From contig NC_134027.1 of the NCBI RefSeq assembly GCF_964204645.1, forward strand, positions 17,322,560-17,386,559: a stretch of 64,000 nt of DNA. Direction: 5' to 3'. The notes under the pieces were generated by a model. The model worked only from the letters and a program-made list of their open reading frames with translations. It ran no database searches and had not been told where the DNA came from. The translations under genes were made by a program, and so were the position numbers. Shown here piece after piece: positions 14,153 to 55,171 of this stretch; position 1 is the first letter of the stretch, and the number at the start of each line of letters is the position of its first letter. This stretch comes from Tubulanus polymorphus. Its lineage: Eukaryota > Animalia > Nemertea.

Positions 14153-14169
14153 TTTTTTCACTATATAAA

Positions 14170-15178: not shown

Positions 15179-15200
15179 GGAATATTTTTTTGCTAAATAA

Positions 15201-15638: not shown

Positions 15639-15654
15639 TTTTTTTATTATATAA

Positions 15655-16953: not shown

Positions 16954-16975
16954 CTTTAATTTTTTTATTATGTAA

Positions 16976-18685: not shown

Positions 18686-18704
18686 CTAATTTTTTGTTAA
18701 ATAA

Positions 18705-20001
18705 ATGAGTGGGAGTTATATAAATCCTTCTAAGAATCATAGAATATCTAATGCTATTAAAGCAGAAAGATCTCATCATATAATTACTCATAACCCTTTT
18801 AATATTAATCCTGATTAAACTTTATATGTTAGAATTCCTCGATTAACACAAAATACTTTTTATGTTCCAAATAGTATTTATTTATCAGCTGATATAAAAG
18901 TAACTGGTAATAATAATAATTATGTTGTTGATAATGTTGGAAGATATTTGATTAAAAAATTAACTATAAAGATTGGCCCAGAAACAGTTTTCTCATTAGA
19001 TGATTATAATTTATTTATGCATTACGAAGATTTATGGTTAACTAAAGAAAATAAAAATAATATGATATTTCAAGGCATCCAATCAGAAAACCAAAATAAA
19101 ATTAAAATCAGGAGCTAATGATGCAATAGTAACTCGTATCGCAGATAATTTAATAAAAAAGATTTTTGGAAGCAAATATAAAATTCCATTAGACTTTGAA
19201 TTGATAAATAATAATATAAGAGATTATATAAATACGCAATTCAAGAAGATTTTATATTCGAAATAACATTTGCTCCTGTAAATGAGATTGTATTATCTAG
19301 CGTTGTTAAAGATATGGGTTATAAATTATCGAATATATGTTGAGAATATGATACAGTAACTGATGAAAATATTGCTAACACAATTCAAACTCAATACAAT
19401 CAAGGATTTTCATTGTTATATGCTTATATTGATAAATTTAAAACTGTAACTATTAATGCAAGTGATGAAATTATTAATGAGAATATTAACTTCCCAAGAA
19501 GATCTATAAAAGGTATATTAATATTTTTTACCATTGCAACATATTCTAATGGTGCAATACAGGTTGATAATTATTACAATCCTGAAATAACAAAAGAAGA
19601 AATAACTATCGAAGGAATAGCAAATAAAATATTTTGTCCAAGGAGTAGAATGATGAGAATGATAGGTATTTTGGCAAGGAGTAGAATGATGAGAATGATA
19701 GATCAATGGCCAGAAATTAGAAAAAATTTTATGAATGAAAAAGTAAAATCATCTGAAAATTGTTATATTTATCAAATTGGCTATTATACCGGTAATAAAT
19801 ATGCATTATGGTTAGATTTTAGAATAACTGGAGATAAATTTATTACATGGTTCTGGGAAAAAATTACAGAACACTAAAGATGGAATACAATTATTCATGA
19901 CAAAGAAAAAAGGAAGCTTTAATTTCAAAATGCACATTTACATCATATCTGACGCGCAATTAAATATTGTAAATTCTCAATTAAATAGTGTTATGTATTA
20001 G
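18705..20001 (+). pseudogene. Major capsid protein, degenerate copy
   Basis: Starts MSGSYINPSKNHR as 35088; stops, frameshifts and a 36-bp duplication at ~19640-19700. Confidence 0.85.
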
Positions 20002-20032
20002 AATTTTAATTTTAATAAAAAAATTATAATAA

Positions 20033-21475: not shown

Positions 21476-21507
21476 AATTTTAACTTTAATAAAAAATCTT
21501 ATATTAA

Positions 21508-22709
21508 ATGGAAGGTGGAATATATGAAATACAATCTCCAAGTGAAATGATATCAGATATATATTATATATTACCTTATGATGAATACAGTAAGTATTTT
21601 GGAGATTACTTTAATCAATTCAAATATAGAATAAGTAAAATAGAAGATAATATTGAACCTAAAATAGAAGATAAGAATGAAACTAAAATAGAAGATAAGA
21701 ATGATATTGAATATAAAATAGAAGATGATATTGAACCTAAAATAGAAGATAAGAATGATATTGAATATAAAATAGAAGATGTAACAGGATATGTATCTTA
21801 TAATATACCCTCTACAACATATGATATTGAATCAAAAAAGACAAATGAAAAATATTGTGACGTATGTAAACAGTATAAAAGTTATAAGAATTGGGCAACT
21901 CATCTTAATTCACTCAAGCGTAAGACAAATAAGAATAAGACTATAAATGAATTGAATAATAATAGTGAAATTGATGATTATAATGTTAAAGAAGATAAAT
22001 ATTGTGAAGAATGTGATAAATATATAAGTCGTAGTAATTTTTCAAAGCATAAATTAACTCAAATACATTTGGATAATGTAGAAAGAAATATATGTGAAAA
22101 GTGTAATGTTGTTGTATTACCTAAAGATAAAATTAAACATGATAATTCTATTGAACATACAATAAAAGCTATTGATTCAAAACGTCTTTTTAGAGCACCA
22201 AGTGTATTTTTTGATGTCGAGAATAATTATCATAGGAAATTAAAAAGATCAATTTTTATCAATTATGTAAGAAATAATCCAAAACAAGTATTATCAGATA
22301 TAGAAACTATTTGGACAGATATACAAACATTTCCAGGTGATTATTTAGGTATACATTATTTCATAAAATTTAAAAATACAGATTTTTTAACAAAAATGAA
22401 AAAAGTTGCTGATAATGATAATTATGATAATAAAAGTGATGATGAGATAATTCAATATTAAAGTTATGAAGATTTTTCACAGGATGTTATAAATGAAATA
22501 ATAAATGATGCAAAAAATAAATATAAAAATATAAGTGAAGACAAATTAAACCAATGTATTTATTTAACTTATGAATTGTATGCTAAGAATTTGAATGCTG
22601 TTGATGGTTATCATACTAAACTATTAGGTGAAGTTGAAGGTAATAGAAAATCACAGGAATTGAAAGATGCATGTCCAAATTGTAGAATTAGAATCAAAAA
22701 AGTAATTTA
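21508..22709 (+). pseudogene. MEGG-family Zn-finger protein (KIED repeats, three fingers, unique C-terminus)
   Basis: 317-aa ORF plus probable frameshifted continuation to 22709. Confidence 0.7.
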
Positions 22710-27219: not shown

Positions 27220-27760
27220 AGTAATTAAAAGTAATTAAAAACTATAATATATTTTCATAACCGCGTGCATTTTATATTAAAACTAAATATTTATTCTAAG
27301 ATATCAATAATTTAAAAAGCATATTGTAAATAAATCAATTGGTCGCTCCACTTCGCTACCGCTCCGCTCCGCGACCAATTGATTTATTTACAATACACAA
27401 ATTCATATAATCAAATATATTCAAATAATAATAATTATTCTATTATTCAACTGAAATGCACGCGGTTATGAAAATATATTATAGTTTTAAATTACTTTAA
27501 TGTTTTGTTTTTAATGAGCTCGACCATTCAACCTTTGATATGAAAGCCCATTACCCCTATTACTCTTAAAATAATCATGTACATGAATAACATTTAAATT
27601 GACAGATAATTCAATATAAAAGTATATATTTACAACATTATTTCAATATTCATATTTGTGTGAGTTAGATTTTTAAACATTAAAAGTGTTAGCAAAGTGT
27701 GATTGAAATAATACATGATATAAATCATTGAACTTCTAAAATCAATTTAGTAAAAAAATA
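27220..27760. repeat. Left TIR of copy C (hairpin 27220-27564; outer ~60 bp missing; ~130 bp extra internal sequence)
   Basis: Reverse complement of 44635-45050, extending almost to the ATG of the first gene. Confidence 0.9.
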
Positions 27761-27770
27761 TGTATAATAA

Positions 27771-28424
27771 ATGGAATCAGAACAACCACAAACTATAAAT
27801 ATTACAAATAACACTGGTGTCATAAACATATACTACAAGAAGTGTTCTAAATGTGAATTAGATAAATTAGCTTTAACAGAATTTAGTAAGCGTAAGATTA
27901 GCAAAGATGGTTTTCAATATTGCTGTAAAACTTGCACTAAACTATATACCAAACAATATCGAGAAGATAATAGAGAAGCTTATAATGATTATATGACAGA
28001 ATATATGAGAGAAAGATATCAAACAGATCTTAATTTTAGATTAAAACAATGTTTAAGATCTAGATTAACACAATTATTCAACAAAGAAACACATTCAGAA
28101 ACACTATCTAATTTATTGGGTTGTTCAGATGAATTTCTCAAATCATGGATAATATATCAATTCGATGATAAAATGAATATAGATAATTATGGTGAATACT
28201 TTCATATTGATCAAATGTTGCCGATTTCTAAATTTAACATGAATGATGAATACAATAAAAAACTTATTTGGGGTTGGAGAAATTTAAGGCCTCTTGAAAA
28301 GAAAGAAAACATAATTAAATCTAATAAACTAGATATACAGTTATATTTAGATCAACTGGATAAAGCAAAGACATTTGTTGAATTATGGAACTCAACACAT
28401 AATGAAAAATACGTTGAATGTTAA
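27771..28424 (+). CDS. Zn-finger + HNH-type endonuclease, 3' end displaced by an insertion
   Basis: CSKC...CKTC; FHIDQMLP (H to Q relative to copy A); original C-terminus (..PK.LIWTVI.TAP) resumes at ~30070-30130. Confidence 0.75.
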   Translation: MESEQPQTINITNNTGVINIYYKKCSKCELDKLALTEFSKRKISKDGFQYCCKTCTKLYTKQYREDNREAYNDYMTEYMRERYQTDLNFRLKQCLRSRLTQLFNKETHSETLSNLLGCSDEFLKSWIIYQFDDKMNIDNYGEYFHIDQMLPISKFNMNDEYNKKLIWGWRNLRPLEKKENIIKSNKLDIQLYLDQLDKAKTFVELWNSTHNEKYVEC

Positions 28425-28916
28425 ACGCTTAGAAAACCGGTTTCTCTCGATCTATGTCAAACCGCCCGTATGTAATTGTATTAGGTTGTTTACAAAAACA
28501 TCTGTGCCGTATTTCATATTCAGTTGAATGGGGCGCACCTCATTTGAATATTGATCGAATGTGCTATTTCAGTTGAAAAGGATTAATCACAAAGGAACAT
28601 CTGTTACAATCCAGGCAAACATGCAGAAGTAATTAGTTTGGTTGAACGTGCGCCACGTCGGCAGTTAGAAATCAACTTTCACATACATAGTACGTATTGG
28701 ATATTTTCTCTCAAAACACAGTTTACAGTTCTAAATCTAAATGTAAGTACATATATTATGAAGTAGGGAAACCTTTAAACATATTTAAGTACAGTAATTC
28801 ATTTTCACGACATCTTTTAGATTAAAATAGAATACAGAGATCAACCAGAAATTCCAAGTCAACCAACGGATGAGGAACCAGAAACGATAGATAGTGAAAC
28901 TCAGGAATCAATAGAA

Positions 28917-29551
28917 ATGGAGGATGAAACTCTCGTAATTGACGAACAAACTTCACAAAAATTACAAGAACATTTGGACTATCATCAAGAAATGGTGAAA
29001 ATTCTGAGTGATGTAATACATAATAAACAATTACCGCGCGAACTACAATTACCAAAATTACCAGCAACGCGACTTAAATTGCTGTGCTCAAAGAATCGAA
29101 AACTAAGAAAATTAGTGGAGAAGAGTTGAACGAGTTTTTAAAATCTAAATTAATCATTGACACGGAACATTTAAACTTTCCGGAAATACAAAGTGTAGAA
29201 GTTATTTCATTTGCTGAAATTACTGATATCTTAAAAAAAAGTTATAAAACCATATTAAATAGAAAAGCAAATCACCTATGGGACCACATCATTTTCGGGG
29301 GTTATCTAAATATAGGGTTTTCAATGTTTGATAAAGAAACTGAGGGGATTTCTTGGGGGCTGTGGGTTAAAAAGAACATAGATATCAGTGCCGGTTTTGA
29401 AAGAAAACTGAGAAGAGTAGGTAGATTAATAAAATATGAAAAATTCAAAATATTAGGATTAGCATTTAGTGAAGTAGTAAGACATTTACCAGAAATTGAA
29501 GAAATGATTGGAAACAATCCAGTAATTAAAGAATTCTGGACAAAATTATAA
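28917..29551 (+). pseudogene. ~210-aa helical protein of unknown function (one frameshift)
   Basis: Overlapping ORFs 28917-29129 and 29084-29551; protein-like pattern G.YL, W..WV...I.IS..FERKLR, FW end; AATAAA near 29996. Confidence 0.6.
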
Positions 29552-29629
29552 ATTATAATACTGAAGGTCTTAGATATCAAAAATGTAATCTCGATTGTAT
29601 ATATCTGTTTTAATATTGTATTGTTTACT

Positions 29630-29982
29630 GTTAACTGTGTATTGCGCAATAACCGGTCCGATTGGACCGCATTTCTATTGTTCTCCATTGTTCTCCATTG
29701 TTCTATTATTGATCGTTGTTAATGGCGGCGGTTGTTCTGTATTGATTGTTTACTGTTAACTAAGTATTGCGCAATAACCGGTCCGATTGGACCGCTGTTC
29801 TATTGTTCTCCATTGTTCTATTATCGATCGTTGTTGACGGAAACAGCTGCTCAATATTGATTGGTTACAGTTCTATGTTTGAATGTTGTAGTTTACAGAA
29901 TAAAAATATAACTGTGTATTGCGCAATAACCGGTCCGATTGGACCGCATTTCTATTGTTCTCCATTGTTCTATTATCGATCG
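29630..29982. repeat. Three dispersed ~70-bp direct repeats with internal palindromes
   Basis: TATTGCGCAATAACCGGTCCGATTGGACCGC at ~29640, ~29765 and ~29917. Confidence 0.9.
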
Positions 29983-30403
29983 CTAAAATTTGTATAATAA
30001 ATATATCTGTTTATGAAATAATATTTCCACCAGTCGTTTCTTTGAATTTATTTTCAGTTTTAGGATTTATTATCGAGAATCCGAAATGACTTATCTGGAC
30101 AGTTATAATTACTGCTCCTAATAGATAGACAATAGTAGTGAGATATTAAATCCTAATTTTAATAAAATATAATAAAAAAACAATAACTTCAACTAGCTAG
30201 TGAATTCTATCATATTTTTAATATTTTCTTTTGGTAATTCTAATTGACATTAGATTGAAAAGATTTTGAATAGATTTGAATAGAAATTCTTTAACTTTAA
30301 CTAACCTAGTCAAATTAGTATTAATCTAAAGAGATACTAGTATCATTTGAAGAATACTTTTTAGTTTTTAACTAAGACTATTACTTTTCAAGAATTAGAT
30401 GTT

Positions 30404-30748
30404 ATGAAACCAGATATAGTAATAAAATATTTTAAGATTTATGAAGAAGCTCGATTAGCTAGAATAAATGATTCTATTTCAGATGGTATTGTCAAATGTT
30501 ACTCTAAGTTATGTAACCAGTTAATACCAATTGATGATGAAAATAAATTATATAGTGATTTGAAAAATGACTACTTAGTTATGACTGAATTACAAAAATG
30601 GGTTGCTTATGCTTCTTTTCAATTAGGATCGGTTATGACATTAATTTCTACTGGCGTCATAACATTTTCGAACATCAAACCTATGGAATATAAATCAGGT
30701 AAGAACGAAACAGATGTACTACAACCAAATGTCGAAACAGAAAATTAA
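30404..30748 (+). pseudogene. Polinton-associated protein, probably 5'-truncated
   Basis: Open 114 aa with hydrophobic C-terminal segment; lacks the TAAATG start, which is seen at the corresponding position of copy A (5919). Confidence 0.55.
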
Positions 30749-30773
30749 TCAGAACAAAAATTAACTAAAATAA

Positions 30774-31142
30774 ATGAGTGATGGAGTTAAGAAAAAGATT
30801 AGATCCGAGAAACAAATTAAATGGGCAAGAGAATTAGGTAAAAGATCTTCAGAATTAAAAAAAGCTAAGAAAAAGAAATTAACTGATATAAATGAATCAC
30901 AGACTTTATCTGATATTGATTCAAATAATAATCCATCTGATTCTTCTAATGCTGGAAGTAATTATAAATTATATATTACAATTGGATTAGTAACAGTTAT
31001 TATATTATCTGGTGTAATATATAAATCAAAATTCAAATCTGATGATAAAGATGATTCCAATGACAGTAAACCTATCATACCAGAAAATAAGTCAAATCAT
31101 AAAGTCATTGAAACTAAATCTAAATTATTATTAATGGATTAA
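30774..31142 (+). CDS. Small basic protein with a single TM helix
   Basis: RSEKQIKWARELGK; hydrophobic LYITIGLVTVIILSGVIY; homolog in copy A. Confidence 0.7.
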   Translation: MSDGVKKKIRSEKQIKWARELGKRSSELKKAKKKKLTDINESQTLSDIDSNNNPSDSSNAGSNYKLYITIGLVTVIILSGVIYKSKFKSDDKDDSNDSKPIIPENKSNHKVIETKSKLLLMD

Positions 31143-31148
31143 AATAAG

Positions 31149-32225
31149 ATGAAAAAAGGACAATATTTAAGAGATTTATATTATAACCCAGAAAGTGAAG
31201 TATCATATTCTAAAGTTTCAGAATTATGGAATAAAATTAAATCTGATAATAGTCATATAAAAAATGGTGAATTAAAATCATGGTTACAAAATCAACCAAC
31301 ATATCAAATCCACAAGAAAATGGATAAAACTTATTTAACAAGAAAAGTTATGGTTTCATATATTGATCAACAATGGCAAGCTGATTTAATTGACATGAAG
31401 AACTTAGAGGAATACAACAAAGGATATTTCTGGATCCTGAATGTTATAGACATATTCAGTCGATACGCATGGTCAATTCCAATCAAAAATAAAACTGGTA
31501 TAGAAGTTACAAATGCTTTTAAATCTATATTTAAAGAAGCTATTCCAGATAAGATACAATTTGATGAAGGTAAGGAATTTTATAACAAACATTTTAAAAA
31601 ACTATTATCTGATAACGATGTAAAATATTTTTCAACACACTCAGATAAAAAAGCATCTATTATAGAAAGATTTAATAAAACATTGAAAACTAGAATGTGG
31701 AAATATTTTACTGCTAATGAAACATATAAATATATCGATGTGTTAGATGATTTGGTGAAAGGTTATAATAATTCTAAACATAGTTCTATAAATATGAAAC
31801 CTATACAAGCTAGAAAAGAAGATAATTCAGAAATAGTTTGGAATAATTTATATGGAGCATTTGTTACACATGCTTTTGGAGAACCTAAATTTAAAATTGG
31901 ACAACACGTAAGAATATCTAAATATAGAAAAACATTTTATAAAGGTTATACCCCAAATTTTACAGAAGAAATATTTAGAATTAAAAAGATAATATTAACT
32001 AAATCTTTTGTTTATAAATTAGAAGATCTAAAAGATGAAGAAATATTAGGTTATTTCTATGAACAAGAATTATCACTTGTACCAAATCCAGACGAAATAG
32101 AATACAAAATAGAAAAAGTATTGAAAACAAAAACTCTTAAAAGAAAAAATATTCTTTGGTGAAATATAAAGGATACGATGATAAATTTAATGAATGGATT
32201 TTATCTAGTAAAATTAAAAGAATAA
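31149..32225 (+). CDS. Retroviral-like (rve) integrase with C-terminal chromodomain (frameshift at ~32150)
   Basis: WQADLID, IDIFSRY, FDEGKEF, IERFNKTLK, YNNSKHSSI.MKP, FKIGQHVRI, F.KGY.PNFTEEIF; YKIEKVL...VKYKGY...NEWI chromodomain. Confidence 0.95.
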
Positions 32226-32837
32226 ATGAATAAAGATTTATTTATATTTGAACCGCATAATATGTTAGTTACTGGAGTAACCAATTGTGGTAAAACACAT
32301 TTCATATTAGACTTGTTAGAAACTATTTATAAGAATCATTTTGATAATATAATATTATTTTGTCCTACTTATGAAATGAATAAAACATATAATAGAGATA
32401 TAGTTAAGATGAAAAAGTTTATTATATTAGATCCTAAAACAGTAAAAGAAAATTTAGATAATTGTATAAAAATAGCAATTGATACTTATAAAGGATCAAA
32501 TACATTATTCATTGTAGATGATTGCGCAAATTTACATGATTCAAAAGTGAGAGAAAGTGAGTTATGTTATTTAGCTTTCTCCGGGAGAAATTTTGGGATA
32601 ACAACTTGGGTTTTAAATCAAAAATATAATTCAATTGTTAAAGACTTTAGAGAAAACATTAGATTTCTAGTTTTATTTTATAACAAAGATAAAAAATCTA
32701 TGCAACAAACATTGGAAAAAAATCAAATTATACCTACTGAATTACATGATGAATATATGAATAAATTAAAGAATAATAAAGGTTCAAAATTATTACTGAG
32801 ACTACAATTTCCATATGAATATAAATTTATAAAATAA
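32226..32837 (+). CDS. A32/FtsK-like DNA packaging ATPase
   Basis: Walker A GVTNCGKT, Walker B LFIVDD, GR(N/H)..I.TWVLNQ, FREN motifs; intact 203 aa. Confidence 0.92.
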   Translation: MNKDLFIFEPHNMLVTGVTNCGKTHFILDLLETIYKNHFDNIILFCPTYEMNKTYNRDIVKMKKFIILDPKTVKENLDNCIKIAIDTYKGSNTLFIVDDCANLHDSKVRESELCYLAFSGRNFGITTWVLNQKYNSIVKDFRENIRFLVLFYNKDKKSMQQTLEKNQIIPTELHDEYMNKLKNNKGSKLLLRLQFPYEYKFIK

Positions 32838-32857
32838 CTATTTATATGACTATGTAT

Positions 32858-32942
32858 TAGATACCCTGATACCCCATTAGATACCCTAATACCTGATACC
32901 CTAATACCTGATACCCTAATACCTGATACCCTATTAGATACC
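32858..32942. repeat. 15-bp tandem repeat (GATACCCTAATACCT) at the convergence point of the two arms
   Basis: Direct reading; about 5-6 units. Confidence 0.85.
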
Positions 32943-33004
32943 TTAAATACTTAAAACCCCCTTTTTTATTTACTATTATTTTATACAATTTTCAACCTTT
33001 ATTA

Positions 33005-33835
33005 TTATTTGATTGTTAGATAATTAATTTCTGAATCACTTTCATCATCACTCTCCAATTCATTATCAGGCCCTAACAATTTATTCAAATGCTCTACCGT
33101 ATCTTCATAAATAATTGGTTTATTGATATACTTATTAGGCAGCTCAACTATATCTTTATTTTCTGATTTAAGTTTCATAGAATCTTTATTAGTGTTTGCT
33201 CCTAATATTTCATTTACAGTGTTTGATTCTAATATTTCATTAGCATCGGTTAAATCTAATTCATCTTTATTAGGTGTTGCTAATAATAAATATTTATATA
33301 TTTTTTCACCATTTACTTTTTGATTTGAAACAAACTTTGTAACATATCTAAATGGGTGTTCTATAAATTCTTTTAAACCAACACGTTCTATAACATTATT
33401 TATATGTTCCTTTGTATTCATATGTTTATTCCAATTTGATGGAGCGTTTGAAAATTCACCTTTACAATAATCACAATAATTTCTATTTTTACTAACATTT
33501 AATATTATTGCATTATTATATGTAGTAGGTATTACATTATTAGATGTAGTAGGTATTACATTATTAGATGTAGTAGGTATTACATTATTAGATGTAGTAG
33601 GTATTACTGTAGTAGGTATTACTGTAGTAGGTATTACATTATTATCAATTACATTACTTAAATTATCAACAACTTCACTTTTATTATTATCGATTTCTAT
33701 TAGTTTAGTTTTATAAATTTTGAAAATAGGATCAAATATCAAAGCTATATTACAAGGTATTACATAATATAAACCATCATTATTTTCATGTGTATCGATG
33801 TATGGAATATGTTTATATACTTTACCTCCTTCCAT
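33005..33835 (-). CDS. MEGG-family Zn-finger protein (VIPTTSNN repeats, one finger, unique C-terminus)
   Basis: Intact 276 aa; YCDYC...WNKHMNTKEH finger; same position as the MEGG genes of A and B. Confidence 0.75.
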   Translation of the reverse strand: MEGGKVYKHIPYIDTHENNDGLYYVIPCNIALIFDPIFKIYKTKLIEIDNNKSEVVDNLSNVIDNNVIPTTVIPTTVIPTTSNNVIPTTSNNVIPTTSNNVIPTTYNNAIILNVSKNRNYCDYCKGEFSNAPSNWNKHMNTKEHINNVIERVGLKEFIEHPFRYVTKFVSNQKVNGEKIYKYLLLATPNKDELDLTDANEILESNTVNEILGANTNKDSMKLKSENKDIVELPNKYINKPIIYEDTVEHLNKLLGPDNELESDDESDSEINYLTIK

Positions 33836-33867
33836 TTATTATATATATTTTTATTAAAGTTAAAATT

Positions 33868-35088
33868 TTAATACATAACACTATCTAATTGAGAATTTAC
33901 AATATTTAATTGCGCGTCAGATATAATATAAATGTGCCTTTTAAAATTTTTGATTCCTTTATTCTTTGTCATGAATAATTGTATTCCATCTTTAGTGTTC
34001 TGTAATTTTTTTCCAGAACCATGTAATGAATTATCCTCTGTTGTTCTAAAATCTAACCATAATGCATATTTATTACCGGTATAATAATCAATTTGATTAA
34101 TGTTACAATTTTCAGATGATTTTACTTTTTCATTCATAAAATGTTTTCTAATTTCTGGCCATTGATCAATCATTCTCATTCCTTGACAAAATATTTTATT
34201 TGCTATTCCTTCGATAGTTATTTCTACTTTTGTTATTTCAGCATTATAATAATTATCAACATTTATTGCGCCATTAGTATACGTTGCAATGGTAAAAAAT
34301 ATTAATATACCTCTAATAGATCTTCTTGGGAAGTTAATATTAATAGTTACGGTTTTAAATTTATCAATATAATCATATAATAATGAAAATCCTTGATTGT
34401 ATTTAGTTTGAATTATACTTGAAATATTTTCATCAGTTACTGTATCATATTCTAAACATATATTCGATAATTTATAACTCATATCTTTATTAACGCTAGA
34501 TAATACAATTTCATTTACAGGAGCAAATGTTATTTCGAATATAACGTCTTCTTGAATTGCGTATTTATATAAAGGTGCATTATTATTTATCAATTCAAAG
34601 TCTAATGGAATTTTATATTTGCTTCCATATATACTTTTTATCAATTTATCTACAGCATTAGTTAATATTGCGCTATTAGCTTCTGATCTTAATTTATTTT
34701 GGTTTTCTGATTGAATGCCTTGAAATATCATATTATTTCTATTTTCTTTAGTTAACCATAAATCTTTATAATGTATAAATAAATTATAATCATCTAATGA
34801 GAAAACTGTTTCTGGACCAATCTTTATTGTTAACTTTTTAATCAAATATCTTCCAACATTATCAACAACATAATTATTATTATTACCGATTACTTTTATA
34901 TCGGCTGATAAATAAATACTATTTGGAACATAAAAAGTATTTTGTGTTAATCGAGGGATTCTAACGTATAAAGTTTCATCGGGATTAATATTTGAAGGGT
35001 TATTAGTAATTATATGATGTGATCTTTCTGCTTTAATAGCATTAGATATTCTATGATTCTTAGAAGGATTGATATAACTCCCACTCAT
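33868..35088 (-). CDS. Major capsid protein (double jelly-roll inferred)
   Basis: 406 aa, beta-rich, most conserved gene among copies; NPSNI.P...LYVR.P.L, LIKKLTIKIG, YKLSNICLEYD, NINFPRRS.GI; 9-aa deletion relative to other copies. Confidence 0.8.
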   Translation of the reverse strand: MSGSYINPSKNHRISNAIKAERSHHIITNNPSNINPDETLYVRIPRLTQNTFYVPNSIYLSADIKVIGNNNNYVVDNVGRYLIKKLTIKIGPETVFSLDDYNLFIHYKDLWLTKENRNNMIFQGIQSENQNKLRSEANSAILTNAVDKLIKSIYGSKYKIPLDFELINNNAPLYKYAIQEDVIFEITFAPVNEIVLSSVNKDMSYKLSNICLEYDTVTDENISSIIQTKYNQGFSLLYDYIDKFKTVTININFPRRSIRGILIFFTIATYTNGAINVDNYYNAEITKVEITIEGIANKIFCQGMRMIDQWPEIRKHFMNEKVKSSENCNINQIDYYTGNKYALWLDFRTTEDNSLHGSGKKLQNTKDGIQLFMTKNKGIKNFKRHIYIISDAQLNIVNSQLDSVMY

Positions 35089-35129
35089 TTATTTAACAAA
35101 AAAATTAATTATTTATTTTTGATCATGGT

Positions 35130-36565
35130 TTACTTGATATTTTTTGATATCATGTTTACTACCCCAAAAATAATAGCACTTACAACTGTAATTAAAAATA
35201 AAATAATATGTTCAGCAGCAAAGTTAATAATGTTTCCTGCAGATTTCAATATAAAACCAACAATTGATGCAATAACTCCAGGTAAAGCTGCAGCAGATTT
35301 TTTAGATAGTTCCCATAAATATTTTGCTAATTTCTTTAAACCATCTTTAACTTTATCTTGTATAGAATTATTACTCGGTGGTTTATCCGGTTTGTTAGGA
35401 GTGGGAGTAGGAGTAGATTTCAAAGCATTTGATATAGCTAAACCAATTGTTGTAAATAACATAGTTACAGCTGTTAGAATTGAAAGAATTGTTATGCCTT
35501 CTAATTTAAATAACAATTTTATTCTATCTTTCAATGATATTTTAGAATCTGGTTTTATCAACAAATCTTTAAAAATAACTTTTAATCTATTAATATTATA
35601 ATCATATGATTTTAATAATAATTTAATTTCTTCTTTTTGTAATCGTATATTATATTCTAAATCATCTTTTTCTTTTTCTAAACGTAATTCTTTTTGTTTA
35701 TATTCTATTTCATCAATTGCTTGACGATCTAAATCAGACTTTAATTGTTCTATTTCTTTATTTTTATCAGTTAATTCTTTTTCTAAATTGTTAATTTTAA
35801 TATCTCTTATACTTTTATCATGTGCAATTTTATCAGATGCATTTCTTATACTAATAATCTCTCTAATTGCTTTATCAGAAAATATATCTAAATCTTCTAA
35901 TTCTTGATCTGTTGCATCAAGTAAACCATTCGGTAAAAGTTTTTCAGTTTGAACTTCTCTTGAATTAGGTTTACTAGTTTTGGAATTAATAACTTCTTTA
36001 GGAATTTTTTTTTGTCTTAAATATTCATTAATTATCTTAAAAAATTTAGCATTTCTTTGTTTAAATTCTTTTATATTATAATTCTTTCTTCTTGTGTAAC
36101 ATCAGTTATAACATCATTAATGATTTTCTTAATTCTATCTGGTTTAAATAAATTAAAAGGTGATTGTGTTATTATTTTATCGCTACTTTTAAGATTTGAA
36201 ATCTTAAAATAATAGTCGCCTTTCAATTTCCAATAATAAACACCATTTAAATATTTTAAATCTTTTACTAAATAATTCATACCTTTATTTGTTATATTGA
36301 AACCAGATCTTTTTAATATTGGTTTAAATTCATGAATAATTTCATTATAATTGTATTCTTTTTCTGTTATTTCTGGTACTTCATTTTCAATACTTATCTT
36401 TGAACGTGTTTTATCAATATATTGAGGTGTATTTAAATTAGAATTATATGCTGATTCATCATCATTATCAATATTAGTTTCATTAAAATCAGGTTGTGGT
36501 TCATCACTTATACCAGGTTCATCACCAAAAGGATCCATTGGAATATCTTCCCCACCTTCTGCCAT
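35130..36565 (-). pseudogene. EDIPMD-family coiled-coil membrane protein, frameshifted
   Basis: ORFs 36565-36071 and 35564-35130 plus intervening frame; hydrophobic helices at C-terminus. Confidence 0.8.
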
Positions 36566-36581
36566 TTACATAATAAAAAAA

Positions 36582-37952
36582 TTAAAATTTAAAATATAAT
36601 ATTCCTCCGATTACAATTCCTATACAAGTTATAGCTAATTTAGTATTTTCATGGGATTTATTATCATCATTTAGTTTAATTATATCATGTTGAATATTAT
36701 CAGTTTTTATATTTTCTGATGTATTATAATCTTTTATTTTAGAATCATTATTTAATTTAATATTCTTAGTTTTAGTTTCTGTTGATTGAATGCGTTTTTT
36801 TTTTTTCACCTTCCATTAATTTTGGAGCAGTAATAATCTTTTTATTTATATCATTTAATCCAAATGAATTATTTATTGTTGCAGTTTTAATTAGATTATT
36901 ATAACCAATTATGTTTCCCATCTTTAATACTAAATCATTAGAAATAATTAATAGATTAGGGCCTATACAATAATTTAATCTAATATGTGATTTATCTAAA
37001 TAATTTTGATATTTTATAATGTTTTCTGTTTATTTTGAATGGAATCTTCAAATAAAACTTTAAATTGTTTCTGTGTATCGAATGATGTACTCAAATTTCC
37101 AATTATTGGTGATCTTGTTTCAACTTGTGATCCTAGAATACAAATCAAATAAGTTCTAATAGATTGATTTATTCTTTCTATACCTGATTTTGTAAAACCT
37201 TCACTTTTTTCTAAAATAAAATAAACCCAACCATTATTGTTTTCTTGTTTTAAATTATCATAAAATTTCGGTAATTTATTGAAATTTAATGTTTCTAAAT
37301 CCTTTGTTTCTATTTTACCATAACCTAATTTATTATTATAGATATTATAAAAGCTATTAGATGGTATGGGAAGTGCACAATATGCTGCAACCTTTTTAGG
37401 GCAAGGAAGTGATCTTATTGTTCCAATTTTTGTTCTAAAATCAGAATTATTTATATCTATATTAAATTCATTACAAATTTTATAAAACTTTGATAAATTA
37501 ATATTATTATCTAATTCTTTAAAATATCTAGATCCTGGTAAAGCGCACTCTAATTCATTTAATATTATTCTGATTTGAAAGTATGTATGAAATCTAAATA
37601 AACTTTGAATTAGTTTATATTTAGAATTATTCAAATGATCATTCCAACTTATTCCACATCCTGTTGTTGCACAATAAACAGCAAAATTTAATTGGTTCTG
37701 CTAATACTTCATATTAGATTTTAATAACCATTGTTTTTCATCTTTCAATTTTTTTAAATTAATTAAATATACATGAAATATATTTTCCATCTTTGCATTA
37801 AAATTATTAGTTTCATTAACATGAATTTCTAAATTAGTTAATGAATCTAAAACTTCATTTCTATATGTAATATCTTTATTAAAATCTATTGCTGGAATAT
37901 TATATTTAATTGATTTATTATATTGGAAAGCTTTTGGAAAACTATCTGCCAT
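36582..37952 (-). pseudogene. WQNQLNFA-family protein with C-terminal TM, with stop and frameshifts
   Basis: ORFs 37952-37701, 37634-37014, 36809-36582. Confidence 0.8.
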
Positions 37953-37968
37953 TTATATAACTAAAAAA

Positions 37969-38403
37969 TTAATAATTTATTAATTCTTTTAATAATTTAT
38001 CTTGTTCTTCAACTGTTATATGGCCATTTAAACTTATTATATAATCTAGTGTGTTCTTTAATTTATTAATTTCTTTTATATTAGTTTTAATTTTTTCTTT
38101 ATTACTTTTTATATTTAATTTTGAACTTATACCGGTAAAAACACTTGAACTTAATCCTAACACACCAATTGATATAGCTAAAGGTGTTAATGGACTGAAT
38201 ATTGCTAGAAATGTTATTACAGAACTAATTGTAACCGAACCACTTATAATCAAATAATATATAATTTTACTTTTTAGATATTTTTTCTTTTTAACTTTTA
38301 AGTCACTTTCAAATTCTAATATTTGTTTTTCTAAATATGTTTTTAATTTAGTTTTATTTATATCATGAGGAATAATATCAATACTATCAACTTTATCTTC
38401 CAT
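37969..38403 (-). CDS. Small two-TM coiled-coil protein
   Basis: Intact 144 aa; hydrophobic 47-92; homologs at 15201 and 62702. Confidence 0.75.
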   Translation of the reverse strand: MEDKVDSIDIIPHDINKTKLKTYLEKQILEFESDLKVKKKKYLKSKIIYYLIISGSVTISSVITFLAIFSPLTPLAISIGVLGLSSSVFTGISSKLNIKSNKEKIKTNIKEINKLKNTLDYIISLNGHITVEEQDKLLKELINY

Positions 38404-38423
38404 TTATTTAGCAAAAAAAATTA

Positions 38424-38846
38424 CTAATTAGTAAATTTATATGCTACAAATATAACAATAACAGTTCCACCTAAAATCCATATCATTTCATATTTCTGTT
38501 GTTCTTTACTCGGGGTATAATAATCTGATAATTTAGGTTTGTATAGATGTAATTTTTCTTTATTGGTTACCGCGTTATATAAACTCATTGCATCATCAAC
38601 TGATTGAAATTCTCTATGTGAAATCTTCTGATCATATAATTCCTTGTTAATATAATCCATATAGTTTTGTCTCTTTTCTCTATATTCTTCCGCAGCTTTA
38701 TTGTATTTCTCTAACGCTAAGTTATGTCTTCTTTGTTCTCCTAATGAACTATTTTTATCAATATGTTTAAATAAATATCAACCACCAGTAAATGCTAAAG
38801 CGTTAACAATTGCCGATCCTATAATAGTTATAATTGCAGAAGCCAT
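38424..38846 (-). pseudogene. ~140-aa protein with N- and C-terminal hydrophobic helices (MASAIITIIG), one internal stop
   Basis: Homolog of 62267; TGA after AFTGG; ORF 38660-38424 is the 3' part. Confidence 0.75.
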
Positions 38847-38869
38847 TTATTTAGCAAAAAATTATGTAT

Positions 38870-39091
38870 TTATATGGGAGGAATATATTTTTGTTTTTCC
38901 AAATAATCAATAGTTAAATTAGATAAAGTAACTGCTAATGTTAATTTTAAAATATCATTTATATCAAATCTATCAACATTAACACTTCCCATTTTGAATA
39001 CTTTTTTTAATACCATTGAATAACCAACAGTTCCAACTGATAGTAATGCGCCATTATATAATCCCGTTATTATCCACTTATTATCACTCAT
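38870..39091 (-). CDS. 73-aa hydrophobic protein
   Basis: Intact, TAAATG start, conserved in copies B and D. Confidence 0.7.
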   Translation of the reverse strand: MSDNKWIITGLYNGALLSVGTVGYSMVLKKVFKMGSVNVDRFDINDILKLTLAVTLSNLTIDYLEKQKYIPPI

Positions 39092-39433
39092 TTATTTATC
39101 AAAAAAATTACTATCATCAAAATATTTAGTTATCTTATTTATGATTAATTCAACATTTATTTCATTACTACTTTTATGATTATCATATATTTTGGATAAT
39201 ATGTTTTTAATATCATCAATAATTCCATCTTCATTTAATTCATAATATTCTAAAGGTGATTTAATTAAATCAATGACTTTTTCTATATTATAATTTTCTT
39301 TATCAATCATTGACGCATTGTTAAATGATTTACTTTTTATATCAGTAATTACATCATTTAGTTTAATTCTCATTTCTTTACCATGTTTAAAATCAAACCC
39401 AAAACATATACTCGGTCCAACAGTTATATTCAT
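39092..39433 (-). CDS. 113-aa hypothetical protein
   Basis: Intact, T-run/TAAATG start, conserved in copies B and D. Confidence 0.7.
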   Translation of the reverse strand: MNITVGPSICFGFDFKHGKEMRIKLNDVITDIKSKSFNNASMIDKENYNIEKVIDLIKSPLEYYELNEDGIIDDIKNILSKIYDNHKSSNEINVELIINKITKYFDDSNFFDK

Positions 39434-39450
39434 TTATATAGTGAAAAAAA

Positions 39451-40203
39451 TTACTCTCTACATCTTATAACTAATTCATAAATTACAGGGAAATTATTTA
39501 AATCAATTAAGTATCCATTATGATTTCTAATTTCTAATCTAAAATTATTAAAACGAGGAATGCATGGTTTGAAATCACATTCTGTTAAATTATAATTTAT
39601 TTGCGTTCCAAATTCTTTAACATTCTTCAATGGTAAAATGTTTAGTAAACCAGAATTACAAGTTATATCTTTAGTTGCTTCGAATGTTTTTGTAGGATCG
39701 ATTAAATTGCAATAAATATAAAAATGTTTGTAAGGTATTAAGTTTGGTGTAGCATCAACATTTGAATAAAGTTTATCTGATGTAATTCCTAACAGTTTAG
39801 CAATAGGTTTTTTAACTAAAAATTGATATTTCTCACTACGAGTTAACCTAATCCTTATTCTATCAGAACTATCACTTTTTAAAAATCTAATACTAAACCC
39901 GGAATAACTACCTAATTTGTGCCAGGCTTTTCTATTAATTTCTTGTGACAATGTATCTAAATTATATAACCCTGGTTTTAGATATAAATGATTTTTTTTT
40001 TTTTTTTCCTGAACTATAAACAATTTATGATCAATAGTTTTATCCGTTATATTATAAAAAGAATTACATAAACTTATATTTACTAATTTTAAATCAACAC
40101 AATTCTTGAATTCTCTATCTAATTGAACTAGTAAATTATGAGATTTATAATTTGTAAGTCTTCTAGAATCTACAAATATTCTGTATTCTTTTAATTCTAC
40201 CAT
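39451..40203 (-). CDS. Putative minor capsid (penton-like single jelly-roll) protein
   Basis: Intact 250 aa with IFVDSR, PGLYN, YIYCNLI, LEIRNHNG.LIDLNN motifs. Confidence 0.72.
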   Translation of the reverse strand: MVELKEYRIFVDSRRLTNYKSHNLLVQLDREFKNCVDLKLVNISLCNSFYNITDKTIDHKLFIVQEKKKKNHLYLKPGLYNLDTLSQEINRKAWHKLGSYSGFSIRFLKSDSSDRIRIRLTRSEKYQFLVKKPIAKLLGITSDKLYSNVDATPNLIPYKHFYIYCNLIDPTKTFEATKDITCNSGLLNILPLKNVKEFGTQINYNLTECDFKPCIPRFNNFRLEIRNHNGYLIDLNNFPVIYELVIRCRE

Positions 40204-40217
40204 TTATTTTACATATC

Positions 40218-40571
40218 TTATTCGAAATCTATTTCATGATGCCCTTTTTCATTCTTACCTTTGTATACGAAATAGAAATCTCCAGAACATAATTCTTCTA
40301 AATCTTCACTTGATAATCTATGAAATCTATCCGGTAAATATGTTCTGAATTTATGTGTATTTCCTTTTAATCCTTCATATTCTAAGTGTATAACTAATTT
40401 ATCTCCATAGTTATTAGTAACTGTATCAATATTTGTAATTAGATATTTCTTATGGATTGTTAATTCTGTTAACTTTTTGAATTTATAATCTACAGATTTT
40501 ACATTTGTTATATCTTTAATTCTATCTAGAAATAATTTGTTGTTCTCACTGTTTGATTGTTTACTCTCCAT
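40218..40571 (-). CDS. Small conserved MESKQ-family protein
   Basis: Intact; homolog of 13034-13375. Confidence 0.7.
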   Translation of the reverse strand: MESKQSNSENNKLFLDRIKDITNVKSVDYKFKKLTELTIHKKYLITNIDTVTNNYGDKLVIHLEYEGLKGNTHKFRTYLPDRFHRLSSEDLEELCSGDFYFVYKGKNEKGHHEIDFE

Positions 40572-40600
40572 TTTAATAACATATTTTTATTAAAATTTGA

Positions 40601-43600
40601 TTAACACGTTAGAATTCTTTTCATTATCTCATTCTCTTTTGTTTCTTCTCTTTTAAATTTTAAGTATTCATCTAAATTACAACCATAAGCAACTGTATGA
40701 ATTCCATCATCTAAAATATATCTTTTATCATCAAATGGGTTTAGACTTATCTTTTCTATCTCTTCAATAAACATTTCATGATCTTCAGATCTTAAACATC
40801 TCATCTTATGTTTTCTAACTTCTTCATTGAATATACAATTGATGTAATCTTTGAAATGAATATTCTTTTCTACTACACTTTTGGTTATTCCTTTTAACTT
40901 TTTAGCTTCATGTTCTTTAGTTTTATATGAATACATTTTAGATCGAATACCTATGAATTCAATCATTTCTTCACCACCTAATTCATCTTTGAATTTACCG
41001 GGAACTTTTTTATTATCATTGCTAAACAATTCATGATTTTTAGGATAATTACTAAAATCAAAATGATGTTTTAATGTTTTTAAATCATCAGTTATGTTAT
41101 CAGTTTTTATCTTTAATATGTAAGAATCGGTATCAAAATATAATATTTCTATATGTTTTTCTCCAAAAAGTGGTTGTAATACATTATAATAGAATTCATA
41201 CATTAGTAATTTTGATAATTCTAAAACTGAAGCGCCAACATAGATATGTTTATTAAATTTCATTGATGTTCTTCTCATCTTAACTGCAGCTAAATTTTCA
41301 TCAAATATTCTGTTACCAATGAACTTAGGATATGATTGTAAATGTCTAATTCTTTTACCATTACTAACTAACTCAATATCATTTCTATTTCTAATATTTT
41401 CACAAGTCTTACCATAGAATGCATTATTCATTAACTTGAAGAAATCTTTCTCGAAATCAGTTTTAGCTTCAGTTCTCTGTTTGGTGTTAAAATCTATATA
41501 TTTTTCTAACCACTTAGATTGACTAAATGAAATATATCTATGTACTTTTTTTAGAATCATTCCTTGTTTTAGATAAAACTTCAACATTCTATAATGTACT
41601 ACATAATTATATTTATCTTCCTGAGTTACCATTAACTTTTCTGTATGAATATGATTTTCGGGTTTAATTCTTTTTTGGTAATTTGATAATTCTTCATGAG
41701 TTACAGTTTTATGTTCGGGACAGTAAGCTAGAAATCTAGATTTAAATTTAATATGTTCAGGATATTCTAAATCTACAACAAAGAAGTAACCAGTATCTGA
41801 ATCATCTGCAATATCTAGGATTCTTTTCTTCCAATCAAATTTATCATTATTTTCATTCTGTAAAACTTCAGTTAATTCAAATACTCCATAAGGTGTGGTT
41901 CCATCATTGCCCAACCATACAAATTATTTGCATCTATATATAATAACTTATATCCAGGGTTATCATTTACATTGAAATATCTATCACCTAATACACCTGA
42001 AACACCTCCTCTTATAGATTTTTCAAATAATAATAATTGATCTATATTTGTTAACAAATCCATTTTTATATTTGTAAATTTTAATCCACAATCCCATGTT
42101 AATCCTGGTGATGAATAACAATGACAAGGATCAATATTGAAATATTTTAGGTTAACATCTCTAAACCTTTCGAATATATCGGTTAATAATAATACATCTG
42201 ATTTTAAATATAAATCTACTAATTGTCCATGATTTTCTATTTTGAAATGATTCCAAATATTCAATGTTCTATTATAGACTTCATCTTTAACATATTCATT
42301 TTTTAATTCATCATAGAATTGTTCTTTTAATAATTCAGTTATGTTAAAATCATTATGATTTATAGAAAGAATATGGAATTGCTCCTTTATATCTCATTAA
42401 TTGAAAATCACCATTATTTGGTTGCTTTAATATTTTCAATTCATCATAAACTAATGATTTTGATAAGTTATCTAATGAACTATTTAAAAATCTATATGAA
42501 TCTATAAATCTTAGGCAACCAAATTGGAATGATATATAATTCTCAGATGTTTAGCTAACGTTCTAAATTTATAAGTTGGTATTTTATCTTTAGATCTATT
42601 TGAATTTAATATTTCTATTTCATTATTGATTTCTTCTATTTTATAGCATAACTGTTTGATGAATAAATGTGCATCATATCCTGATAGATTATGAAATATA
42701 ACTGGTACAAAGTTAATTTTCTTAGCTTGTAAGTTACAATTCTCATGTGCAGCGCCTCTAAACTTTCCATTCAAATGATCATGGTCTCTTACTTTTTTAT
42801 CTTTATAATTAAATATCTTTTCACAATAATAACATTTATCTGCAAACTCAAATGCTTCTTTATCTTCTTCTGTCATTATAATTTCTATATTTGTATTCAA
42901 TAATTTACTAAATCTTATTTCATATTCAATTAATAAGTCACAAAAATGATTGATAACATTTTCATTTCTATAATTATAATATTCACTTTCAATTAGTTCT
43001 GGATAATCAGATTTAATATATAACCCGAAAGCAGCAGCTGATTGATGAATCTTTTTAATAGTATTTGTTTTTGGTGGTTCATCTGAAAAATCATTTTCAT
43101 TAGAATTTAATTTCTTTCTCTTATAATATATTTCTTTTCTATCTTGATCAGTTAATTCTTTATTTAATGATTCAAAATCTCCATATATAACAAATGGTAC
43201 TTTATTTTTGTAGTCATATTTTTTGAATTCTAATATTTTATCTTTTTCATTTGGTAAAACTAATTTACAATAATCATGATTTTCACATAATTGTTTATGA
43301 TTTAATAACGTACTTTCATTACTGAATCTATGTAAACATTTTCTACAAAGATATATTTTATGGTGATCATTTTCTGATTTAAAAAATAAATCGATTTGTT
43401 TAATCCACATATAATGATTCTCATAATATAGTATATCTATAACATCATTTGAATCATAATCTTTTGATAGATATAAAGGTTCTAATGTATAATGTTTTAT
43501 GTTGTTACCTTTTGTATTTGGTAATTTGATTAAATCAAATACATTTATCTTTATATTATTATCTCTTTCTATTTTTGGGATGTTTTTAATTATAACAGGA

Positions 43601-44628
43601 TACTTATCTATCTTATAATTTTTTTCAAATTGTTTATAATGAGTTAATCTAAAACTATGTGTAATATCTACTGTTGGATGTAAACAACTTATTATAGCCC
43701 ATAGAAAATATTTACTATCAAAATTTTGTACATTTATTACAGCATTAGTTTTAAATGGTAGTTTGATATAACTCGATGCTTCAATATCTGGTTCTTTATA
43801 ATATGATACATTATTTTCATCGATTGGTTTTGATTTAGTTAACTTATTATATTTTGTGTTATAAACATGTAAAGTCATAAATATTATCTCATCAAATATT
43901 AAACCAGATCCTTCAAAATATTTCTCTTCTATTTTAGTTTTTACTTCATTATAACATTTATCTAATTTATCATCTATATGTTGTTTAGATATAATATGTT
44001 GTGAATGAGAATTTATATTAAATATTGGTTTATCTTCAGATTTTATAAACTTTACTTTAACTGATATACTTATTTTAGGATATTCAACATCTGTAATTAT
44101 TTTTATTATTTCTTTCATATTTTCTAAATGTTTTTTATTTTCTTCTAATGTTTTTCCTTTATGAAATTTAAACTCGATAGCTGCTGGACCAATATCACTT
44201 TTAAATGCTTCGGTTATCTCTATATCTTTTTTATTATCTTATGAATTAATATAATTTCTTACATCTTCCATGTATGGTCTTTTATTGTTTAATTTATTTT
44301 TTATGTTTTTAATTGTCTTCTGTTTCTTATCGTTATCATTATCAAAATAATCTTCACCTAAAATATCATTATTCTTATTTCTAATATGACTTATAGATTT
44401 TGAATGTTCTTTATAATATCTTTTATCACTGAATGATTGATTACATGTATCACATTTGTATTTTTCTTTTTCATTCTTTAATTCATCTAATTTAGTTTCT
44501 AATATATCATCTTCATATTCTAGTTTCAATTTATTCTCTAAATGTGTTTTAGTTTTATTGTGTCTTGCTTTTTGGGATTTATCTATGTTGATATTACATG
44601 TTGGACAGTAGTACTTATTTGCTTCCAT
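40601..44628 (-). pseudogene. Protein-primed DNA polymerase B with N-terminal Zn fingers and an endonuclease VII-like insert; ~4 frameshifts
   Basis: YGDFES (ExoI), DHDHLNGKFRGAAHENCN, FHNLSGYD (ExoII), YLKSDV (ExoIII), DANNLYG, KLMNNAFYGK, YFDTDS. Confidence 0.95.
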
Positions 44629-44634
44629 TTTAAT

Positions 44635-45113
44635 ACTAAATTTTTTATTAAAATTGATTTTAGAAGTTCAATGATTTAAATGTTATTCATGTACATGATT
44701 ATTTTAAGAGTAATAGGGGTAATGGGCTTTCATATCAAAGGTTGAATGGTCGAGCTCATTAAAAACAAATATTAAAAGTAATTTAAAACTATAATATATT
44801 TTCATAACCGCGTGCATTTCAGTTGAATAATAGAATAATTATCATTATTTGAATATATTTGATTATATGAATTTGTGTATTGTAAATAAATCAATTGGTC
44901 GCGGAGCGGAGCGGTAGCGAAGTGGAGCGACCAATTGATTTATTTACAATATGCTTTTTAAATTATTGATATCTTAGAATAAATATTTAGTTTTAATATA
45001 AAATGCACGCGGTTATGAAAATATATTATAGTTTTTAATTACTTTTAATGTTTTGTTTTTTAATGAGCTCGACCTTTCGACCTTTGGTATGAAAGCCCAT
45101 TACCCCTATTACT
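44635..45113. repeat. Right TIR of copy C containing a 405-bp fold-back hairpin (44709-45113)
   Basis: AGTAATAGGGGTAATGGGCTTTCATA...TATGAAAGCCCATTACCCCTATTACT; inner stem ATTGTAAATAAATCAATTGGTCGC / GCGACCAATTGATTTATTTACAAT. Confidence 0.93.

Positions 45114-55108: not shown

Positions 55109-55111
<3 letters not shown>

Positions 55112-55168
<57 letters not shown>
55112..55168. repeat. (TA)n microsatellite inside a nested AT-rich inverted-repeat region (54720-55390)
   Basis: Direct reading. Confidence 0.9.

Positions 55169-55171
<3 letters not shown>

Follow-up and report, generated by a model that had tools for sequence, protein, structure and literature searches.

Whose RNA polymerase is meant to read a virus-like element whose genes nearly all start with the same six letters? 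This question is raised by a 64,000-nt stretch of the genome of the ribbon worm Tubulanus polymorphus (contig NC_134027.1, positions 17,322,560 to 17,386,559; hereafter the window). The window is a nest of AT-rich copies (22-25% GC) of one element, lying amid Gypsy and BEL/Pao retrotransposons, and the string in question is TAAATG. We focus on copy C (27220..45113), a decayed polinton-like provirus with a protein-primed family B DNA polymerase (pPolB), an rve integrase, a double-jelly-roll (DJR) capsid protein, an A32-type ATPase and inverted ends. No RNA polymerase gene was found by Pfam or PHROG searches among the open reading frames (ORFs) of the window or of its relatives. Its promoters make it probable that the element, like a virophage, is a parasite that depends on a helper, namely an animal virus of the Nucleocytoviricota; from the sequence, this helper can be assigned to a phylum but not to a family.

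The genes of copy C, with the signal at each start, are as follows.

27771..28424, + strand: Endonuclease VII/HNH-type gene (PHROG 1035, E 4e-15); A-run and TAAATG
30365..30748, + strand: conserved membrane-protein gene, 3' part only, start lost in copy C; the start in copy A, at 5919, is TAAATG with a T-run
30774..31142, + strand: MSDG, conserved small gene; TAAATG
31149..32224, + strand: rve integrase (PF00665, E 1e-9, over the cut-off); TAAGATG; two frames, with the break near the 3' end
32226..32837, + strand: A32-type packaging ATPase (PF04665, E 1e-10, over the cut-off); TAAATG without a T-run; frame open
33005..33835, - strand: MEGG zinc-finger gene; A-run and TAAATG
33868..35088, - strand: double-jelly-roll major capsid protein; T-run and TAAATG; frame open
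35130..36565, - strand: MAEG, large coiled-coil/membrane protein gene, in pieces; T-run and TAAATG
36597..37952, - strand: MADS, conserved 440-aa gene with a C-terminal hydrophobic tail, broken; T-run and TAAATG
37969..39433, - strand: four small genes, MEDK (start 38403), MASA (38846, broken), MSDN (39091) and MNIT (39433); T-run and TAAATG at each
39451..40203, - strand: probable minor capsid (penton) gene; TAAATG without a T-run; frame open
40218..40571, - strand: MESKQ gene; A-run and TAAAATG
40601..44628, - strand: pPolB gene; A-run and TAAAATG; four pieces, one stop

Start signals in the window

Twelve of the 15 clear gene starts in copy C read TAAATG. The remaining three are two TAAAATG starts (40571, 44628) and the TAAGATG of the integrase (31149). 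These counts agree with an earlier note on this DNA, made from the letters alone, and the motif strings that it quoted at 1182, 15655, 18705 and 35088 read as given there. The note had named an absence of enrichment over the AT background, or a coupling of stop and start codons, as grounds for doubt. Against a matched null, composed of other ATGs that come first after an in-frame stop, TAAATG is strongly enriched (12/15 versus 39/470, or 8.3%; P 3.8e-11). Other ATGs on both strands give 39/656, and shuffling of the 40-nt upstream stretches produced a maximum of seven TAAATG starts out of 15 in 100,000 rounds. The null that the note had proposed, internal in-frame ATGs, is invalid, because such ATGs can never follow TAA. 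As for coupling, the stop of the upstream gene supplies the TAA of the start only at 39091 (1/15).

The same grammar had been claimed for the other copies, and there TAA is kept at 16 of 20 homologous starts; the four exceptions are the homologues of the two TAAAATG starts and of the TAAGATG start, and one TAGATG. The copies are 75-95% identical to one another and hence not independent. Two further descriptions in the note held up: intergenic gaps are shorter than 35 nt in 10 of 11 cases, and the element is far more AT-rich than the flanking transposable elements (24% GC in copy C versus 42-48%).

The proposal that structural genes carry a T-run describes seven consecutive genes well (39433 to 35088) and fails for the probable penton (40203) and the ATPase. 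Seven starts have 6-7 T in positions -13 to -7 before TAAAT, and T occupies -10 in nine of 15; six of the 15 have an A-block and an A at -10, with the penton and the ATPase among them. The T-run and A-block classes do not simply track structural versus replicative function. Likewise, the A-run genes had been likened to vaccinia intermediate genes: the A-run is present, but it ends 8-10 nt before TAAA, where the vaccinia spacer is 12 bp. The upstream regions of the HNH and PolB genes are duplicates of each other (85%).

Three minor observations can be added. Upstream of MEGG (33835-33870, - strand) lies an 11-nt stretch as in the vaccinia G8R intermediate promoter, at a near-equal distance from TAAA (PMC12917281; here and below, statements on cited works refer to those parts of their text that were available); this likeness was noted by eye and post hoc, and may be due to chance. 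The string TTTTTNT occurs five times in sense and 43 times in antisense orientation, as raw counts without a codon-matched null. A scan for the T-run/TAAATG pattern gave nine matches, which we attribute to chance.

The grammar among metagenomic relatives

Alignment of the capsid protein led to at least 67 metagenomic loci, and all counts on relatives are among the matches listed. After removal of one locus without a usable gene, the others fell into 47 groups, of which four consisting of fragments only were dropped and 43 kept. Gene starts in these relatives were set by N-terminal homology, not by motif. In 14 of these non-redundant relatives, 47 of 50 starts are TAAATG; in the 29 others, 0 of 123 are. 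The label "TAAATG-type" was set at 50% of starts, so the distribution gives a fairer view: of the 24 loci with at least three genes, 15 have a TAAATG fraction of 0 and nine a fraction of 0.67-1.0. AT-rich relatives outside the TAAATG type have the motif at 0 of 27 starts, and TAAATG-type relatives at 36-44% GC have it at 21 of 23. Because of this all-or-none split, together with the AT-rich negatives and the GC-richer positives, the start grammar is, as judged from these comparisons, under selection and not a matter of composition.

The context of the motif is also conserved. In the TAAATG-type relatives T frequency peaks at -12 to -8 (61, 72, 68, 78 and 55%), base -3 is T in 47 of 50 starts, and as many carry G or A at +4; the other relatives have A or G at -3 in 99 of 123 starts. 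Under the Kozak rule, TAAATG is a poor context. A T at -3, instead of A or G, agrees better with a transcription start site within the AAA than with a Kozak context of the host. T-runs of at least four are equally common at head-to-head starts (10/23) and tandem starts (17/39), in a set not cleared of near-copies. The T-run therefore belongs to the downstream start, and its interpretation as a terminator of the upstream gene was rejected. The TAA doubles as the upstream stop in four of 39 tandem pairs. ATPase starts are T-poor in seven of seven lineages.

Quick trees were built with 30 rows (of 42 loci with long capsid ORFs) and with 61 rows. The window element falls in an 11-row TAAATG clade (Shimodaira-Hasegawa-like approximate likelihood ratio test, SH-aLRT, 99), and two more TAAATG groups stand apart from it. 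The 61-row tree has four changes of grammar, three of them forced, which suggests several origins; a single origin was not rejected on the 30 rows (three changes; approximately unbiased test, p-AU 0.268).

Other relatives use other signals, in groups picked after inspection of the sequences. In a sister lineage (L015, L016, L020, L025, L027, L044, L051), 15 of 26 starts have TATA within 12 nt of the ATG, where shuffling gives a mean of 4.0, and the same lineage has a weak VLTF3-like gene, below the Pfam cut-off. African swine fever virus has a TATA initiator and short leaders (PMC7163114), and by analogy the TATA-near-ATG lineage may mark an asfarvirus-like helper. A third dialect, TAAA(A)ATG or TATA-N1-3-ATG with an upstream T-run, is found in distant AT-rich relatives (L018, L033, L036, L048, L055; L077, L079, L080), with TAAA within 12 nt of the ATG at 16 of 22 starts. 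The last three of these loci sit in a bacterial metagenome-assembled genome, yet resemble animal DNA. GC-rich relatives with the same gene set have no near-ATG motif. Differing near-ATG signals, and a weak VLTF3-like gene in sister lineages, are what would be expected if the lineages track different helpers.

Candidate transcription machineries

In vaccinia late promoters, TAAAT(G) overlaps the start codon and a T is conserved at -10 (PMC11980589). Vaccinia intermediate promoters have TAAA, no T at -10, an AT-rich block upstream and a 12-bp spacer, with a core that lacks a consensus (PMC12917281). TAAATG is kept in the salmon gill poxvirus and in an entomopoxvirus (PMC4542343, PMC3061580), and an entomopox-like locus bearing NPH-II (L107) has it at three of six unselected starts, these six being the whole of our poxvirus control. 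The element shares with poxviruses the TAAAT over the ATG and the T at -10 with neighboring T's, and its TAAA variant with an A/T-rich block upstream may have its counterpart in the intermediate class. It differs in having this grammar on nearly all genes, the polymerase and integrase included, and in the shorter A-block spacing. Vaccinia A32L is of the intermediate class, with which the T-poor ATPase starts of the element agree.

A poxvirus-like virus is the best single match for the predicted helper and takes about half of the probability that we give to helper dependence. The other half goes to a helper that is iridovirus- or marseillevirus-like (Pimascovirales) or another Megaviricetes virus with ATAAATG late starts, a version of the helper reading that we would hold only tentatively when it stands by itself. 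To weigh it, IMG/VR was scanned for head-to-head TAAATG pairs, giving 63 loci, and unselected stretches of six non-pox giant-virus records were then counted. TAAATG stands at 30 of 78 starts in these stretches (5/5 in G001, involving three paralogues; 6/21 in G002; 7/25 in G003; 8/12 in G004; 1/4 in G005; 3/11 in G006). Since the six records were found through the TAAATG pattern they overstate its frequency; the pooled other loci give 25/181. Their upstream profile is similar to that of the element, A-rich at -17 to -13 and T-rich at -10 to -7. An icosahedral capsid of nucleocytoplasmic large DNA viruses (NCLDV) is encoded in five of the six; for the G003 and G004 capsids, the closest matches are Singapore grouper iridovirus and Melbournevirus. 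ATAAATG exceeds ATAAATC in G001 (174:114) and G002 (428:296). In the literature searched, we found no description of such frequent ATAAATG starts in uncultured iridovirus/marseillevirus-like and other giant viruses (L147 and L148-L152, corresponding to G001 and G003-G006).

Also in favor of a non-pox helper, an A directly precedes TAAATG at 11 of the 12 window starts. Marine invertebrates are among the hosts of iridoviruses, whose cycle includes a nuclear phase. On the other hand, this A is missing at 14 of 47 starts of the relatives versus three of 30 in the six records. The Megamimivirinae late motif (PMC11464507) is not enriched within 100 nt of the starts (1/15 in the window and 3/50 in relatives, versus shuffle means of 0.9 and 2.9), and the early motif is absent.

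TAAATG is not a poxvirus signature. What stands of the note's interpretation is a giant-virus-type start grammar, real and under selection, on an animal polinton-like provirus in which Pfam and PHROG found no RNA polymerase gene; a helper that is necessarily pox-like is not supported, given the non-pox TAAATG starts.

Several observations weigh against a poxvirus helper, or against helper dependence altogether. Besides the frequency of TAAATG in the non-pox records, among them a record with an iridovirus-like capsid (G004), the T-run separates the element from those records only modestly: mean T content in -12 to -8 is 3.4 versus 2.5 (p 0.01), and at least four T's occur there in 23 of 47 versus nine of 30 starts (p 0.15). 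No pox-derived gene, RNA polymerase subunits included, was found in the window or among 67 proteins of relatives. Vaccinia D13L is an intermediate gene, and the capsid gene of the element is T-rich instead. Promoter class is not fixed, as homologues of the HNH, integrase and MESKQ genes have T-runs in some relatives. Tight spacing does not speak for a helper and was rejected on that count: in head-to-head pairs the two start codons are separated by 15-64 nt or overlap, and this holds for non-TAAATG relatives too. No helper virus, transcript start or expression was observed, and a polymerase of the cytoplasm would have to gain access to a provirus in the nucleus.

The alternative outside the giant viruses that survives best is host polymerase II acting in the nucleus, perhaps with an element-encoded factor, in which case TAAATG and the T-run would be a lineage-specific core promoter, or the TAA an in-frame stop insulating against read-through RNAs. 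Integration by rve does place the element in the nucleus, the motif is absent from the GC-rich relatives with the same gene set, the +4 base is usually G or A, and autonomous polinton-like viruses are known (TsV-N1; PMC11296320). However, other relatives prefer A or G at -3, the opposite of the T found with TAAATG, the T peak lies at a fixed distance, TAG or TGA would insulate equally and yet only TAA is used, and the motif persists between head-to-head genes, whose starts are not crossed by any RNA from upstream. We consider this explanation unlikely. Less likely by far is a polymerase from a cytoplasmic linear-plasmid-like element of the yeast pGKL type, which would be pox-related without being that of a giant virus. 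Such elements are not known in animals. Those of yeast have a TAAAN initiator and a pox-related polymerase (PMC6211774), but the initiator is not fused to the ATG with a T-run at -10, and no element of this type was seen here. Finally, a by-product of AT richness, stop-start coupling or the copying of one promoter block can be dismissed almost entirely, for although the upstream regions are 87% AT and the HNH and PolB promoters are duplicated, the matched null, the GC split among relatives and the coupling counts refute it.

Under helper dependence, the reading that we prefer, the free element would come into, or be reactivated in, a cell that a large DNA virus has infected. Its genes would be transcribed by the late (post-replicative) RNA polymerase machinery of that virus and not by the host, with transcription starting inside the AAA to yield leaderless or poly(A)-leader mRNAs. 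The A-run genes (polymerase, ATPase, nucleases) might fire earlier than the T-run genes (capsid, membrane proteins). The element would then copy itself with its own pPolB, package itself with its own capsid and ATPase, and integrate via rve. TAAA-type starts even on the polymerase and integrase fit a parasite limited to trans-acting late machinery, as poxvirus biology would have it. The copies in the window are decayed remains, which lend no support to the note's idea of integrated copies as inducible antiviral parasites. A bolder picture, which we regard as possible but doubtful, has the ribbon worm carrying hundreds of copies of a true poxvirus satellite, or pox virophage, and thereby revealing that marine invertebrates have a poxvirus lineage still to be discovered. 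Throughout this wide, animal-associated family, each start signal (TAAATG, TATA-near-ATG, TAAAA, none) would then be the fingerprint of a different giant-virus helper, and intact copies could be inherited antiviral parasites.

Element anatomy and known systems

The remaining features of the window are these.

27220..45113: copy C, polinton-like provirus, ~17.9 kb, 24% GC; termini 5'-AGTAAT...ATTACT-3'
27220..27599: left terminal inverted repeat, imperfectly palindromic, part of its interior deleted; 99% complementary to 44674-45049
44674..45113: right terminal inverted repeat with a ~400-nt palindrome inside (fold -137.5 kcal/mol, z -25)
28427..30070: higher-GC insertion in copy C, with lower read depth than the rest
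1..10345: sister copy A, rearranged; start grammar as in copy C
12818..22461, + strand: sister copy B, with an internal duplication; start grammar as in copy C
54720..56936, + strand: fragment D, with a terminal palindrome and the start of the polymerase gene (55439)
61340..63072, + strand: fragment E, small-gene block
58466..59149, + strand: BEL/Pao retrotransposon ORF, 93% identical to a Tubulanus polymorphus protein (next matches 51-54%)

In a T. polymorphus sequencing run, 85,610 of 12.9 million DNA reads fell on 19.9 kb, 32,900 of them overlapping it only in part, which amounts to at most 0.66% of bases. Read depth is 140-1,130 over the element and 32-47 in the flanks, and 1,782 reads run off position 45113 into diverse flanks. 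The high depth and the diversity of the flanks show that the element has many insertions in the worm genome. Polinton inverted repeats start with AG, as do those of copy C, and polinton target-site duplications measure 6 bp. The sequences on either side of copy C show no such duplication; as part of its left end is lost, decay or rearrangement may be the reason.

Palindromes of 135-670 nt, able to form long hairpins, lie at each element end (44708-45113, 27220-27570, 12818-12969, 10209-10345 and 54720-55386), with conserved outer and variable inner parts. The insertion in copy C has ORF remnants at 28821-29129 and 29078-29551, and a short palindromic unit occurs three times near 29620-29980. 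A transposable-element-like repeat at 24080-26792 recurs at 52824-54540; only its first copy contains a satellite block (24540-25360), made of 49-nt units between inverted 8-nt arrays.

The polymerase, integrase, MADS, MASA and other genes of copy C are broken, and the frames of the capsid, ATPase and penton are open. An AlphaFold2 model of the capsid protein (predicted local distance difference test, pLDDT, 85) has the PBCV-1 capsid as its best Foldseek match (E 4e-15), and 809 homologues were found. In a search of BFVD an adintovirus protein appeared only at rank 25, and IMG/VR yielded no capsid relative. Capsids 52% identical (P0046 cluster) occur in assemblies labelled Bartonella sp., probably as host contamination; the sequences suggest that the capsid clade reaches terrestrial arthropods too. 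The penton candidate has a profile match to PBCV-1 P1v1 at only E 0.17, and no Pfam match was obtained in 12 family members. For the MADS family, the model (pLDDT 68) matched no known fold (best Foldseek E 0.49, best Z 3.9), and the Atlas gave no usable match. Pfam and PHROG assigned no function to MESKQ.

The pPolB is 87% identical to its relative P0276 and 70% to P0288, which bears PF03175, and has N-terminal zinc fingers and an EndoVII domain (PF02945). Intein/LAGLIDADG domains (PF14890, PF14528) are present in the related polymerases P0288 and P0330. A deoxynucleoside kinase is encoded in TAAATG-type relatives (L004:2898-3377, L010:10343-10981) and is fused to the polymerase in P0282; considered as a pointer to the helper lineage, it gave no such direction.

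Dependence on giant viruses is proven only in protists; for animal polintons, which could instead be autonomous, the one poxvirus link, in insects, comes from co-sequencing. A conserved late-promoter grammar offers a sequence-level test of helper dependence, and in this worm it predicts the existence of a large DNA virus of nemerteans. In the available parts of PMC11296320, PMC8502044, PMC11131425, bioRxiv 2026.10.13.758929 and bioRxiv 2024.03.23.586382 we found no promoter analysis. Nor did we find a description of TAAATG grammar on polintons in the literature searched, outside which lay subscription journals and supplements that may bear on this. Pox-associated polinton-like viruses (PLVs) of insects and helper-matched promoters of protist elements are already known; the TAAATG grammar on an animal polinton was not found in print.

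By four hallmark genes (pPolB, integrase, capsid, ATPase) and its inverted ends, the worm element is a member of the polintons and polinton-like viruses (Polisuviricotina). With Polintons/Mavericks, adintoviruses and coral polintoviruses (PMC8502044, PMC11131425), it shares the pPolB, rve integrase, A32/FtsK ATPase, DJR capsid, inverted ends and high copy number, and VLTF3 homologues are known in a polinton subgroup described there. It differs from polintons and adintoviruses in the N-terminal zinc fingers and EndoVII domain of its polymerase, in its several small membrane-type proteins and in its palindromic ends. For the adenain protease and the OTU domain on PolB, which characterize adintoviruses in the strict sense (Polintoviricetes), no Pfam or PDB match was obtained in 44 window ORFs, 67 relatives' proteins and four profiles, searches that could miss divergent forms.

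The precedent that the note had invoked, pox-associated PLVs, exists in insects. AHEV_PLV1/2, CBEV_PLV1 and Ca_PLV1 (Barth et al. 2024, PMC11296320) are likewise small DJR viruses that have inverted ends and have been proposed to parasitize a giant virus of an animal as hyperparasites. They measure ~12 kb, all have an adenovirus-type protease, and they lack an rve integrase, whereas the nemertean element has 17.9 kb, pPolB and rve, and no protease was found in it. Their helper link comes from co-sequencing from occlusion bodies (PMC11296320), that of the worm element from promoters only, compared by description.

Palindromic ends are known in protist virophages and PLVs, mostly without pPolB (bioRxiv 2026.07.28.741278); in the worm element they coexist with it. 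The pairs Mavirus/EMALE-CroV, Tsv-TetV-2 and Gezel-14T-PgV (bioRxiv 2025.10.09.676808) also involve integrated elements, of the rve/pPolB type or related to it, that have no RNA polymerase of their own and use helper promoters; promoter type predicts the helper. They differ in their protist hosts, Imitervirales helpers and motif, and in that dependence and an antiviral effect were shown experimentally. In that work, helper-matched promoters decide the reactivation of endogenous virophages; such promoters are also reported for protist virophages in bioRxiv 2026.07.28.741278. The all-or-none split among the relatives of the worm element suggests that promoter type can sort animal polintons, too, by lifestyle and helper.

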